This document shows, piece after piece, positions 13,101 to 32,364 of a DNA stretch of 64,000 nt. The notes beneath the pieces are model-generated. The model did no database searches. It saw nothing but the letters and a program-made list of their open reading frames with translations, and had not been told where the DNA came from. The position numbers and the translations under genes are program-made. Every line of letters begins with the position of its first letter. Within the stretch, counting starts at the first letter, position 1. Source of the DNA: an uncultured Phycisphaeraceae bacterium. Its GTDB lineage: Bacteria > Planctomycetota > Phycisphaerae > Phycisphaerales > UBA1924. Location of the stretch: contig CALCCF010000031.1 in the NCBI GenBank assembly GCA_937899905.1, forward strand, positions 3,612 to 67,611, written 5' to 3'.

Positions 13101-13942
13101 TGCAGCCCCAAGACGGCGAGAAGTTCGGCCGCGCAATCGAGGTCACGGACCAGTGGCTCTTCGTGGGCGCGCCCAACCACACCGTGGGCACGAGCCAGGC
13201 GGCCGGTCGCGTCGTCGTGTTCCGCTGGACGGGCGACTTCTGGACCGAGCACCTGTCGCTGTTCGCGCCGATGCCCGTGACCCTCGACCGCTTCGGCACC
13301 GACATCGCGTGCTTTGGCGACACACTCGTGATCGGCGCGCCGTATGGCGACGGGATGGGCGTGATCAACTCTGGCGTCGGGCACGTATTCGAGTTTGACG
13401 CGGCGACCGAGCTGTGGACGCACCGCCACGAGCTGAGCTCGGCCGACGCCGATGGTGGAGACCACATCGGCTTCTCGGTGGCGGTCAGCGAGTTCACGAT
13501 CGCGCTGGGCGGCTATGGCTTGGCCGATCCGGTGACGGGCACATCGAGCGGTGCGGTTGCGGTGTTCAAGCCCGACGGTTCTGGAGGATGGACCGAGGCT
13601 GCCACGCACTATCCTGCGACCGGCAGCGATCTCGAGCGCTTCGGCCACGATGTCGCGCTCGAGGGTGGCAACCTGTGGGTCGCCGCTCCCTACGCCGACG
13701 ACGATCCTGCCGGCGTCACGTCGTTGTTCGACTCGGGGCGGGCGTACACGATTGACCTCGAGTGCGCGTCCCCGTGCCCGATCGATCTTGGCGCGCCCTT
13801 CGGCGTGGTCGACGTGTTCGACTTCCTGGCGTTCCTTGACTTGTTCGGCCGAGGCGACCCCGCCGCGGATATCAACGGCGATGGCATCCTGGACACGTTC
13901 GACTTCCTGGAGTTCTTGAACCTGTTTGGTGCGGGGTGCTGA
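10163..13942 (+). CDS. Large secreted FG-GAP repeat protein with a C-terminal dockerin-like GC module
   Basis: An internal ATG at 10163 gives the signal peptide MRVPLAVTASRVLTILAAVGIAATPAQAQ. Many integrin-alpha-type FG-GAP repeats are present (FGSAVDV..IGAP, FGAAVDVDGVWAVVGAP, YGATVAMDGEWMAVAAP, FGHAVAFDGDHALVGAP). The protein ends ...DINGDGILDTFDFLEFLNLFGAGC. Confidence 0.8.
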   Translation: MRVPLAVTASRVLTILAAVGIAATPAQAQVEIDLSVSPFDRLLPHHGFGNESMTVFGTTEDDRDNLLLVRVFEQGAACETDAPLRVYRQEADGSWVIEAGIDPILYQHPVSAAISGDTLVIGDAPGFRSFEGRALVYRRIDRQWVLESELRADEPGFWDFYGEAVAIDGDTIIVGAPNFNSGSTATNPRDGEGAAFVYRRTGSTWDLVRRFDNPARDPIAAEFGSAVDVVEQWHGAEVAIGAPGLMASSGGRGHVYRYVERDGWASMGGKSLTVGGDAVFGTQVGLGTTAAVYAGNTAAMLMDTSTPLYDIDLLFAIPGGTVDRVDAHFTYALLGYPDFDSAGADAGSFQLWDRVTTRSEYQDETPAFDWPLDAGDRLGDRVTLSSDTIAVAAPGDDDAGPNAGVVYTWDRNPLGGWLTGERISVGFATPNGRMGTSFAATEERLFVGVPGGERCDKPGGMVFTYTKQGRDWAPESRIQAPDVSATADFGAAVDVDGVWAVVGAPMDGDLAEGSAHVYQNIAGEWTLVRSLRPDGVEADARYGATVAMDGEWMAVAAPEGRGGAAEASGFVEIYRRVGSDWTLQRRLDGGDALAGRAEIGAALSLEGDRLLIGAPGAAMETGAVLALEAPFTGAPQVIEADLAMPGDRFGHAVAFDGDHALVGAPGTGADQGTIYTAEFSGAWSAPEEIAGLPTTAGARLGTSLDLLGRAGIAGAPGAGVASMVYRTSEGWQWFADRQGDAAAGYGQNVMLVGDLMLVAAPEDGTLTERGGSVEVDLFDYSFEVVECPDTADPQPIDTVINPDREAFDLLGYSIAVSGDAAVIGAPYEAIEYLDPFGTPRTDPTGGTAYVYRRVEPYRWEREADLNRLIGVDPAIGWFGWSVDMLGDRILVGAPEADTPVSPRGGAYLFERTLDGWQRTHTLLPRDGLPITPFGVAVGMSERTLVAGQPEMSVDAIRPGVVWVSEREGPVWLAPDILSPLQPQDGEKFGRAIEVTDQWLFVGAPNHTVGTSQAAGRVVVFRWTGDFWTEHLSLFAPMPVTLDRFGTDIACFGDTLVIGAPYGDGMGVINSGVGHVFEFDAATELWTHRHELSSADADGGDHIGFSVAVSEFTIALGGYGLADPVTGTSSGAVAVFKPDGSGGWTEAATHYPATGSDLERFGHDVALEGGNLWVAAPYADDDPAGVTSLFDSGRAYTIDLECASPCPIDLGAPFGVVDVFDFLAFLDLFGRGDPAADINGDGILDTFDFLEFLNLFGAGC
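13775..13939 (+). repeat. Dockerin-like GC module, copy in the FG-GAP giant (first loop degenerate)
   Basis: CPIDLGAPFGVVDVFDFLAFLDLFGRGDPAADINGDGILDTFDFLEFLNLFGAGC, with the stop directly after the terminal Cys. Confidence 0.7.
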
Positions 13943-14077
13943 AGAGGGAACTGCCAAGACCTCCGGGCGTGGAAGCGCGTTCGGGTGGTGTTTGACACAT
14001 CGAGCCATGCTCTGATCCCGCGGTCGCTCGTAACCTCGGTCGTCCTCGCCGCGTACGAATGGGCGGAGGAAGGACGC

Positions 14078-29878: not shown

Positions 29879-29997
29879 TCCCGCGATGGAACGCGCTGCT
29901 GGCTGGCGTCTGCGCGATCCGTCGATGCGTGTTCATCGATGTGTTGAGCAATTGTGGCGGGAGTCGTGCAACGCATTGTCGAGAGAGGAGATATCCG

Positions 29998-32364
29998 ATG
30001 GCTGCGAGTACGAGCGTGAACCGGGTCCTGGGGATGGCAGGCCTTGCCCTGACTGCGTGTTCCGCCGTTTCGGCGCACTCGGGACATTCCGTGCGCGAGA
30101 TGCTCCCAGATCCTCGGTCCCCCGGTCCCCTGTATCCAGGCCAGCGGTACCCCGCCGGTGACCGAGCCCGAGATGCCGCCCTCGGCGACCTGAACAACGA
30201 CGGATGGTTGGATTTGGTGCTGGCCTCTGGCCCGAGCGTGCGCCTGGGTCTGGGCGATGGGTCGTTCGGAGGCGAGCGACTGCTCGCGACTGGGATCTTC
30301 TTTGATCGCGTCGACCTCGTCGATCTCAACGGCGACGGCAACCCGGACGTGTTGGCTTCCGACGACGAAGGTTTCACCGTATTCCTGGCCGCGGGCGATG
30401 GGACGTTTCCTGAGTCACGCCGTGTCGAAACTAGGCGAGATATCAATGATTCAGCGGTTGCCGACATCAACGGCGACGGCTTCGACGACGTCGTGCTCGC
30501 TCGGGGCTTCTTCAGCTCTTATCTCGAAGTGTTCGCCGGCGACGGCGATGGTGGGTTTCAATTGCTGGACTCCATTTACGACCATCGTCCGCTGCGATGG
30601 ATCGCGCTGGCCGATCTCGATGGCGATGGTGACACCGATCTGGTCGGGTTCCACCCGTTCTCGGGTGTGCCCGGCATCGTCCGCTACAACGACGGCCTTG
30701 GTGGGCTCGATGAGTTGCAGGAGATCGGCAACCTAGACGCCGACCGTGTGGTCGCCGCCGACATCGACGGCGACGGCGACCTCGACCTGCTGGGATGCAA
30801 CAGCGGCGGCTACGCCTACGACTTGAAGCTCATTCGCAACCTGGGCGCTCGTGAGTTTGGTGATGTTGAGTTCGACTTTCTGCCAGGGGCCTACGCGTCG
30901 ACATTCCAGGTGGCCGACGTCAACGGCGACGGCCTGGACGATGTGCTCACGGCGGGCACGCGATACTTCAGGATCCCCAGCGACGTCCAAATCTTCGACG
31001 GTCGCGGTGGCGGCACGTTCGCACCACCGCGAAGATACCTCGCGGGCGAATTCCCATCGGCCATCGCGCTTGGCGACGTCAACGGCGACGGCCTCATCGA
31101 CGCGGTCATCGCCAACGAGGACTCGCGCGACTCCAGCGTGCTGCTCGCCGAGGCGCCCGGCAGATTCGCGGTGCGGCAGGAATTGCCCGTCGGGGATGCG
31201 CCCCGGGGCCTGGCGGTCGCGGACTTCACCGGCGATGGCGTGCTCGACGCGCTGGCGACCGAAGCCGATGACGGTGACCTTGTCCTGCTGGCCGGCCGCG
31301 GCGACGGCACGTTCGAGCCAGGCATCGCTCTCCCGATGGGTATCCGGACGCGAGCGTTGCTTACCGGTGACCTCACCGGGGATGGATTGCCGGACGTCGC
31401 CTTCAGCGGCGAGGACGAGCCGGTCGCCGTGCTCGCGGGCGACGGCACCGGCGGCTTCGCGGCCCCGACACTGATCGACGGGGCGACCGAACCGCTCGCG
31501 CTGCACGACATGGACCTCGACGGTGATATCGACATCATCGCCATCGAAGCGGCGGGCGACTCTCTGGTGTTCATTCTCAATGGAGGTGACGGCACGTTCC
31601 AAGAGCCCGAACGCATCTTCGGAGCCGGCTCGGGCCTTGCAGGGACCGTGGTGGTCGACTTCAACGAAGACAGCGCTCCAGATCTGCTTGCGTACCGCCG
31701 CCGGCCGGGCACGGTCTTCGCGTATCGCAACCGTGGAGACCTCCGTTTTGACACCGTTTCGAGCGTCGAGATTGGAGTCGATGTCTCGGGCATCGCCGCG
31801 GATGATCTCGATGGCGACGGCGACATCGATGCTGCGGTTCTCGTGAGCGGTGGCGTCGGGGCTGTGACGGTGATCGAGAATCTCGGCGCGGGCGGGTATG
31901 CCCGCGGCGCGAGCTTCCCCCTTTCGGGTCGCGCCTCGCCGCGTGACATCGAGATCGTTGATGTCGATCGGGACGGAACCCGTGACATCCTCACGGCGTC
32001 CTACGGCGAGGACGCGATACAGATCTTCCGAGGGCTCGGCGGCGGGCTCTTCGAGCCGGTGATCGGATTCGACGCGGGCGCGAGGCCCTTCCAACTCGAG
32101 ATCGCCTACCTCAATGGCAACGGCCGCCCCGACCTGGTGGCGACCGCCGAGCAGAGCGATGAGGTGGCCGTGCTGCTGCACCAATGGCCGGCCGTGTGCT
32201 TCGCCGACTTCGATGATGACGGCCGCTTGACGCTCTTCGACTTCCTGTCGTTCCAGAACGCGTTTGCTGGGGGTGATGCCTCGGCCGATTTCGACGGTGA
32301 TGGCGTCCTGACGCTCTTCGACTTCCTGGCGTTCCAGAACGCCTTCGACGCCGGCTGCGACTAG
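29998..32364 (+). CDS. Secreted FG-GAP/VCBS repeat protein with a C-terminal dockerin-like GC module
   Basis: The ATG at 29998 is preceded by GAGAGGAG; the track ORF from 29437 is a high-GC extension overlapping 29402-29878. The signal is MAASTSVNRVLGMAGLALTACSAVSA. Repeats include DLNNDGWLDLVLA, DLNGDGNPDVLA, DINGDGFDDVVLA and DVNGDGLIDAVIA. The protein ends ...DFDGDGVLTLFDFLAFQNAFDAGCD. Confidence 0.8.
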   Translation: MAASTSVNRVLGMAGLALTACSAVSAHSGHSVREMLPDPRSPGPLYPGQRYPAGDRARDAALGDLNNDGWLDLVLASGPSVRLGLGDGSFGGERLLATGIFFDRVDLVDLNGDGNPDVLASDDEGFTVFLAAGDGTFPESRRVETRRDINDSAVADINGDGFDDVVLARGFFSSYLEVFAGDGDGGFQLLDSIYDHRPLRWIALADLDGDGDTDLVGFHPFSGVPGIVRYNDGLGGLDELQEIGNLDADRVVAADIDGDGDLDLLGCNSGGYAYDLKLIRNLGAREFGDVEFDFLPGAYASTFQVADVNGDGLDDVLTAGTRYFRIPSDVQIFDGRGGGTFAPPRRYLAGEFPSAIALGDVNGDGLIDAVIANEDSRDSSVLLAEAPGRFAVRQELPVGDAPRGLAVADFTGDGVLDALATEADDGDLVLLAGRGDGTFEPGIALPMGIRTRALLTGDLTGDGLPDVAFSGEDEPVAVLAGDGTGGFAAPTLIDGATEPLALHDMDLDGDIDIIAIEAAGDSLVFILNGGDGTFQEPERIFGAGSGLAGTVVVDFNEDSAPDLLAYRRRPGTVFAYRNRGDLRFDTVSSVEIGVDVSGIAADDLDGDGDIDAAVLVSGGVGAVTVIENLGAGGYARGASFPLSGRASPRDIEIVDVDRDGTRDILTASYGEDAIQIFRGLGGGLFEPVIGFDAGARPFQLEIAYLNGNGRPDLVATAEQSDEVAVLLHQWPAVCFADFDDDGRLTLFDFLSFQNAFAGGDASADFDGDGVLTLFDFLAFQNAFDAGCD
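32197..32361 (+). repeat. Dockerin-like GC module
   Basis: CFADFDDDGRLTLFDFLSFQNAFAGGDASADFDGDGVLTLFDFLAFQNAFDAGCD. Confidence 0.75.

Follow-up and report, generated by a model that had tools for sequence, protein, structure and literature searches.

Five secreted proteins encoded on the + strand of a 64,000-nucleotide stretch of Phycisphaeraceae DNA (contig CALCCF010000031.1; the whole stretch analysed is called the window below) terminate in the same small module of 54-55 residues, bracketed by cysteines and composed of two calcium-loop-plus-helix repeats. Comparisons with homologous proteins support the view, put forward in the first-pass annotation of this DNA, that the module is a cell-surface sorting or anchoring tag of its carriers: relatives of one carrier's cargo domain end, at the same junction, either in this module or in tails of the PEP-CTERM or type IX secretion system (T9SS) type.

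Translation of the window reproduces all five coding sequences (CDSs) with their tails, and the span originally given for the group, 13775-32361, runs exactly from the start of the first module to the last codon. A six-frame regular-expression scan and a hidden Markov model (HMM) scan of all open reading frames (ORFs) both put the copy number at exactly five. In each copy, an opening Cys leads into a 12-residue loop (DxDxDG..FD) and a helix (FLxFQNxF); after a short turn (GDxxA) come the second loop and helix, and Gly-Cys closes the module. The earlier length estimate of 54-58 residues was right about a shared module and too generous at its upper end; likewise, the last Cys is near-terminal as described, with 0-1 residue after it rather than 0-2 (the tails end GC, GC, GCP, GC, and GCD). 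Module 1 (13775..13939, +; 55 residues, GC then stop) has a degenerate first calcium loop (DLGAPFGVVDVFD), correctly spotted at the outset in this 1259-residue FG-GAP protein; P0060, encoded by a Planctomycetota metagenome-assembled genome (MAG), shares this variant. Module 2 (16364..16525, +; 54 residues) and module 4 (27764..27925, +; 54 residues, the copy modelled alone) also stop directly after GC, while module 3 (20959..21120, +) and module 5 (32197..32358, +) are 54 residues long with a terminal Pro and Asp, respectively. Module 3 is the most divergent copy (31-32 of 54 residues identical to the others) and lies, as had been noticed, in a gene of lower G+C content (0.60, and 0.64 at third codon positions, vs 0.66 for the window).

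To which family does the module belong? All five C-termini match the NCBIfam model NF041540 (dockerin_GC, "GC-type dockerin domain-anchored protein"; 67 positions) over model positions 1-67, scoring 53.2, 40.5, 37.7, 46.3, and 34.8 bits for carriers 1-5 against a curated whole-protein cutoff of 29 bits; with E-values of 1.7e-8 to 2.8e-14, the matches are far beyond chance. In carrier 1, the match covers residues 1205-1259. The first-pass annotation had suggested this name, and the five scores above cutoff bear it out; NCBI already uses it for close homologues in Phycisphaerales MAGs (JB064, JB060, JB039, and others). The host lineage and the multiple paralogues that go with NF041540 are found here too, in the form of Phycisphaerales synteny and five carriers in the window. 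The five tails are ordinary members of a curated, named family, and nothing sets them apart; the family was already known, and its novelty had been overestimated. Full-text literature searches found no paper that mentions "GC-type dockerin", NF041540 being an annotation model only.

The first-pass annotation had proposed mapping all carriers with a profile, and the family turns out to be large, not rare. A profile built from 105 modules and run against 1.84 billion cluster representatives finds 20,634 matches at E ≤ 1e-3, of which 5,235 reach E ≤ 1e-10. In GTDB, with each species represented by a single genome, at least 409 module sites were confirmed; the best 80 are almost all in Phycisphaerales or Phycisphaerae MAGs, and one 3.3 Mb chromosome has at least 11. 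The 79 carrier loci retrieved hold 168 carriers, and 59 of these loci contain two or more; thus, clusters like the window's five are typical. One GC-type dockerin protein, P0054, is filed as cyanobacterial (Leptolyngbya valderiana BDU 20041), most likely because it comes from a contaminating Phycisphaerales contig in that assembly.

Among 141 top representatives, the last Cys lies 0-2 residues from the C-terminus in 134 (~95%), preceded by Gly in 132 of these. Other arrangements exist: in P0159 the module is N-terminal, directly behind the signal peptide, and P0126 and P0128 carry seven to eight internal tandem modules behind a metalloprotease-like N-domain. These N-terminal and internal copies imply that the module is autonomous and does not require a free C-terminus. 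P0122 has one and a half modules, and P0279 a single Cys-bracketed repeat. Internal tandem arrays are also seen in the P0121-P0125 group, with four tandem Cys-bracketed modules in Asn/Lys-rich proteins.

The function of the module is best approached through what replaces it. A search with the cargo alone of carrier 4 (CDS 27101-27928) gave 32 matches, whose tails were read: 14 have a full GC-type dockerin, 14 a PEP-CTERM-type tail (pattern ..IPTPGA..LAGLV..RRRR), one a T9SS type A sorting domain, and one a single Cys-bracketed half-module. The switch always falls a few residues past the conserved last strand of the cargo (..GNxRxDNxxIxG). The T9SS tail of P0294 matches TIGR04183 (58.8 bits vs cutoff 23), and the PEP-CTERM tail of P0296 matches TIGR02595 (26.8 bits vs cutoff 16); P0283, the second PEP-CTERM-type tail compared with NCBIfam, has no match there. 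Two of the 14 PEP-CTERM-tailed homologues come from MAGs named Phycisphaerales. The alternation is also seen, independently, between neighbouring genes: in loci L076 (5377-6858) and L014 (5383-6864), a GC-dockerin gene is followed by an adjacent paralogue with 32-34% identical cargo and a PEP-CTERM end, so that sister proteins encoded in one genome bear different tags. With L076/L014 and L016/L074, the alternation extends to two more cargo families. None of the five window tails has a PEP motif, a transmembrane helix, or a basic cluster. Alternation at a fixed junction indicates that, in the architecture of its carriers, the module takes the place of known C-terminal signals for surface sorting or anchoring, and it is these swaps with PEP-CTERM and T9SS tails that support the reading as a sorting or anchoring tag.

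What kind of domain occupies this slot? The double loop-plus-helix design of dockerins, proposed at first sight, is upheld by the ligands in both loops and by a profile match to a Ruminococcus flavefaciens dockerin (5lxv_B; E 1.2e-5) that covers both loops. Each 12-residue loop carries D1, D3, D5, G6, and D12, with the acidic residues at the canonical ligand positions 1, 3, 5, and 12; in an alignment of 240 tails, D4, D6, D8, and D15, and D31, D33, D35, and D42, are conserved at 93-100%, with Gly at loop position 6. Judging from these residues, the module would bind calcium. Structure prediction of the module alone, one of the checks first suggested, gave a confident AlphaFold2 model of module 4 (predicted local distance difference test score, pLDDT, 90.8) with two helices, at residues 19-31 and 46-57 of 60. 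Its top five PDB neighbours in Foldseek are dockerins, all from structures of cohesin-dockerin complexes (2ozn_B, 2y3n_B, 4uyp_B, 2vn5_D, and 2vn5_B), with template modelling (TM) scores of 0.53-0.62 and root-mean-square deviations (rmsd) of 2.1-3.5 Å; the Foldseek E-values of 1.4-3.6 are not significant for this 60-residue query. Calmodulin superimposes with a TM score of ~0.3 and an rmsd of ~8 Å. A calmodulin-like EF-hand pair is not what the model depicts: no entering helix precedes either loop, the model has only two helices, and Pfam EF-hand_1 stays below threshold (16.6 vs 25.4). By this model, the module probably belongs to the dockerin "F-hand" fold class, with two predicted calcium loops, each followed by one helix.

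The cysteines point to where the module resides. Of the 240 tails, 94% have C1 and 99% have C54, and a disulfide between these two cysteines may staple the module termini. In cellulosomal dockerins, the termini are held by a non-covalent "intramolecular clasp", which stabilizes the calcium-bound form (PMC3821032). Additional cysteines in the 240 tails appear only in pairs, at positions 32 and 45 (10 of 10) or at the symmetry-related positions 5 and 18 (4 of 4); such perfect covariation at duplication-related positions indicates that these cysteines form disulfide bonds and hence that the module probably sits in an oxidizing, extracytoplasmic location.

The similarity among modules is not a by-product of recent sequence exchange. 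Module pairs that share 40-44 of 54 residues use identical codons at 27-30 of the identical residues, where codon usage predicts 22-23 (in one pair, 30 of 43 observed vs 23.2 expected). Synonymous sites are thus largely randomized, and the similarity is kept at the protein level; these counts rule out recent gene conversion as its source. Whatever the cargo, the ligands of the loops are conserved at 86-100%, as are F, L, F, Q, N, and F of the helices. Surface residues that are not calcium ligands (Q20, N21, Q47, N48, T12, and T39) show 86-96% conservation between genera and between carriers with unrelated cargos, a pattern that would be expected if all carriers had to fit one recognition partner.

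This last observation bears on the notion that the module has no partner at all and is a calcium-dependent stabilizer or spacer, an acidic cap that aids folding and solubility or that is bridged by calcium to anionic envelope polymers. Module 4 (27764-27925) is extremely acidic, with ~18 Asp/Glu residues to a single Arg; tandem arrays exist; and the search for a partner, described below, found none. The conserved non-ligand surface, however, would be hard to account for in this way, and exchange at a fixed junction with bona fide sorting tails is unexpected for a mere stabilizer; we regard this explanation as improbable.

How might a surface tag of this kind work? A carrier would be exported via its N-terminal Sec signal peptide; the module would fold with calcium and oxidize, the C1-C54 disulfide closing it as a covalent version of the dockerin clasp; and the conserved pseudo-symmetric face (I/L-F-D-F-L-x-F-Q-N in both repeats) would bind a receptor shared by all carriers on the cell surface and so retain the cargo there without a covalent bond. 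The tag would thereby display mostly non-enzymatic binding cargo, namely FG-GAP and other β-propellers and jelly rolls resembling carbohydrate-binding modules (CBMs), and would serve in place of the PEP-CTERM/exosortase or T9SS C-terminal domains that homologous cargos bear in other genomes. That the anchoring is non-covalent and that one receptor serves all carriers is our inference, and we rate the complete chain, from Sec export through calcium- and disulfide-dependent folding to retention on a common receptor, as somewhat better than an even bet. A more tentative proposal, clearly less probable, is that the carriers belong to a third, non-covalent surface-display system of Phycisphaerales, which would operate beside PEP-CTERM/exosortase in the same genomes and be interchangeable with it in evolution. 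The module would then be a minimal dockerin stapled by its disulfide, and a dedicated receptor other than a cohesin would bind its near-invariant, pseudo-symmetric Phe-Gln-Asn face; such a receptor could be a protein of the outer membrane or S-layer, for example, or an envelope polymer bridged by calcium.

Several findings weigh against retention of carriers by a dockerin-like tag on a surface receptor. As to the fold, the Foldseek E-values of the 60-residue model (1.4-3.6) fall short of significance; Pfam Dockerin_1 scores below its gathering threshold of 22.9 in two carriers (16.6 and 19.7), gives no match in the other three, and is matched at E ≤ 1e-4 by only 2 of 110 other carriers; and ordinary EF-hand proteins are among the best PDB sequence matches at similar E-values, although these matches are piecemeal whereas that to 5lxv_B spans both loops. 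As to the exchange of tails, replacement in place at one locus was considered and dropped: P0284 and P0287, two of the PEP-CTERM homologues, have other genes around them and are not at the syntenic locus. Moreover, PEP-CTERM and T9SS tails are recognized and cleaved sorting signals, so that the exchange of tails is compatible with a secretion signal no less than with an anchor. Finally, no receptor was found: no cohesin family is among the Pfam results for the window genes (for genes other than the carriers, the best 25 of 45 families), in the 110 carriers, or among the 25 most-matched Pfam families, each present in at least 2 of 115 secreted-looking neighbours; and when 583 non-carrier ORFs from the 79 carrier loci and the window were clustered, no non-carrier family recurred beside carriers beyond ordinary synteny.

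The main rival grows out of the cleaved tails: the module would be a secretion or sorting signal whose folded form is recognized by a machinery that carries the cargo over the outer membrane and may then remove the module. Its extreme C-terminal position in ~95% of the top representatives (134 of 141) and its alternation with two kinds of processed tail are what such a signal would predict, but the N-terminal module of P0159 and the internal tandem modules of P0126, P0128, and P0121-P0125 do not suit it, and no candidate machinery recurs near carriers. To our knowledge, all dockerin folds characterized so far are binding modules, which also counts against a secretion signal; we consider it unlikely, and favour non-covalent retention on a surface receptor.

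Could that receptor be a cohesin after all? In an assembly resembling a cellulosome, the tails might dock enzymes on a cohesin-bearing scaffoldin encoded elsewhere in the genome. The dockerin fold and sequence matches speak for this, as do the two symmetrically conserved repeats, a property of dockerins with dual binding modes. On the other hand, the positions through which type I dockerins contact cohesin, Ser-Thr and Lys-Arg (1OHZ), are I/L-F and Q-N in the module. The cargo is rarely enzymatic, with 25-29 FG-GAP proteins, ~13 other propellers, and a single peptidase each of families S8 and M43 among 110 carriers, and cohesins are missing from the window and the tested neighbours (in part, from the best 25 families), in line with the first-pass annotation, which had recognized no cohesin-like gene in the window. 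There is a precedent in this class: a non-cellulosomal cohesin/dockerin surface assembly, the "planctosome", has been hypothesized for the freshwater Phycisphaerae family Nemodlikiaceae (Andrei et al., 2019; PMC6461901), a model that rests on Pfam cohesin and dockerin matches of peptidase-associated proteins (PMC6461901). For the carriers studied here, we find a planctosome doubtful; together with the calcium cap, it is less likely than both the surface-receptor reading and the secretion signal.

Several neighbours were considered as partners and rejected. Histidine kinase/response regulator genes, HD-GYP, ABC ATPase, ParA-like, and ScpA genes recur beside carriers, mostly in one copy per genome, which marks them as synteny, and the same applies to extracytoplasmic function (ECF) sigma factor and Ser/Thr kinase genes. 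A family of ~210 residues with no Pfam match is encoded in the vicinity of GC-dockerin genes in three MAGs, at several loci (L064 3516-4220; L004 10914-11561; L007 ~6538-7200; L020 ~8789-9450) and has no obvious signal peptide. In the window, an ORF of 165 residues (16522-17019, +), whose ATG overlaps the stop codon of carrier 2, contains a lipobox-like LGFTAC; as a coupled receptor it was set aside because none of the 79 loci has a homologue and nothing like it follows the homologues of carrier 2, and its product matches nothing in Pfam or NCBIfam. A Ser/Thr kinase with tetratricopeptide repeats (7096-10050, +) is encoded directly upstream of carrier 1; homologous kinases stand beside carriers in L011, L044, L045, L069, and L078, often with a planctomycete-type ECF sigma factor (PF07638). 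This could reflect regulatory linkage or the mere abundance of such genes.

The carriers themselves are a varied lot. All five start with ATG behind GGAG/GAGG-like sites, and their N-termini read as basic, then hydrophobic, then AxA-type, in keeping with the signal peptides first assigned to them. Carrier 1 (10163..13942, +; 1259 residues) consists of a signal peptide, nine FG-GAP_2 repeats (Pfam E 4.9e-75), and the module. Carrier 2 (14078..16528, +; 816 residues) has a Rax2-like β-propeller of ~13-14 blades between signal peptide and module; its repeat period is 50-55 residues, not the ~57 first proposed. Full-length homologues with 41-44% identity in L011, L006, L063, and L065 end in the module as well. 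Carrier 3 (19807..21126, +; 439 residues) is a shorter paralogue of this propeller (34% identity by BLASTP, E 2e-33), with its own signal peptide and the divergent module. Carrier 4 (27101..27928, +; 275 residues) combines a signal peptide, a β-jelly roll, and the module; the jelly-roll assignment made by eye agrees with a model of the cargo (pLDDT 84.2) that matches CBM4/16/27/29 folds with Foldseek E-values down to 5e-7. The place of carrier 4, flanked by an MqnC-like radical SAM gene on one side and a ketoacyl synthase gene on the other, is syntenically conserved; its orthologues in L015, L021, and L004 are 90, 70, and 70% identical, respectively. Carrier 5 (29998..32364, +; 788 residues) bears twelve FG-GAP_3 repeats (E 3.1e-74) between signal peptide and module. 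Its N-terminus (29998-30080, +; GMAGLALTACSAVSA) contains a possible lipobox, LALTAC, and carrier 5 could therefore be a lipoprotein in addition to having the module at its C-terminus. The cargos had been called unrelated, and distinct types are indeed present; carriers 2 and 3 are nonetheless paralogous propellers, and carriers 1 and 5 are both FG-GAP proteins.

The wider family gives a similar picture. According to Pfam, the 110 other carriers include, besides the propellers and peptidases counted above, two CBM96 and two β-helix proteins, and most have no Pfam domain; the set does not look like an enzyme complex of the cellulosome type.

Adjoining carrier 5, a gene on the - strand (32518-33543) encodes a protein that ends VVPAPGVGTIALVGAGLLLGRRRQRRT, a PEP-CTERM-like tail by motif only, with no NCBIfam match; its cargo is not similar to that of carrier 4. 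Both genes are missing from the syntenic stretches of L015 and L021, which suggests a local insertion that carried proteins with both kinds of tag. Carrier 3 also has an unusual setting, a stretch of lower G+C content (17349-21126, ~0.61) that includes a trypsin-like protease gene (17349-18458, -) and a barstar-like gene (18643-19038, +) and that may have been acquired horizontally.

The remainder of the window is ordinary chromosome, with genes for DnaK, MutS, DnaA, L27, RnpA, and tRNA-Lys and a complete bacterial 16S rRNA gene (60306-61779, +; 1431.9 bits). It is syntenic with three Phycisphaerales MAG loci, best with chromosome OZ245777.1, in which the orthologue of 27101-27928 is 90% identical. 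No 23S gene follows the 16S gene; the next gene, 62086-62559, encodes an RsfS-like ribosomal silencing factor, and the rRNA genes therefore appear to be unlinked.

Why does a tail that the NCBI annotation pipeline PGAP would already label on all five genes deserve attention? The GC-type dockerin family is very large, and yet no study of it turns up in the searchable literature; in a planctomycete order about which little is understood, each genome has dozens of surface proteins marked by it. The tail swaps turn its name into a concrete, testable statement of function, equivalence to PEP-CTERM or T9SS tags. What non-cellulosomal dockerins bind has been a question ever since they were first catalogued outside cellulolytic bacteria, and the extreme conservation of the 54-residue module makes it a convenient bait for their partners.

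Among known systems, the EF-hand pairs of calmodulin and of Entamoeba CaBP1/2 share with the module the 12-residue DxDxDG loops and give weak matches (E 1e-4 to 5e-6); unlike them, the module has no entering helices, and Asp rather than Glu occupies loop position 12. Cellulosomal dockerins (PF00404) resemble it in more respects: they too consist of two repeats, each a calcium loop with Asp at position 12 and a helix, are usually C-terminal on secreted proteins, have their termini held together, as a disulfide would hold those of the module, and superimpose on the model with a TM score of ~0.6. The module differs from them in being shorter (54 residues, with ~4 residues between helix 1 and loop 2), in having a Cys-Cys pair as its putative clasp, in a presumed binding face that is rich in Phe and has Q-N in place of S-T/K-R, in scoring below the Pfam gathering threshold, and in its mostly non-enzymatic cargo; no cohesin accompanies it in the window genes or in 225 carrier and neighbour proteins (partly the best 25 families), and its hosts are aerobic or marine-type Planctomycetota rather than cellulolytic Firmicutes. 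In contrast to the proposed planctosome, the carriers described here are mainly propellers and CBM-like domains, with no cohesin among the genes scanned.

The comparison with PEP-CTERM and T9SS tails is one of position rather than structure. The module lacks the transmembrane helix and the basic cluster of PEP-CTERM and the β-sandwich of the T9SS C-terminal domain; it is instead a folded calcium-loop domain that also occurs at N-terminal and internal positions, and we know of no dedicated processing enzyme for it. With both kinds of tail it nevertheless shares the C-terminal slot, homologous cargos joined at a common junction, and many carriers per genome, often in clusters.

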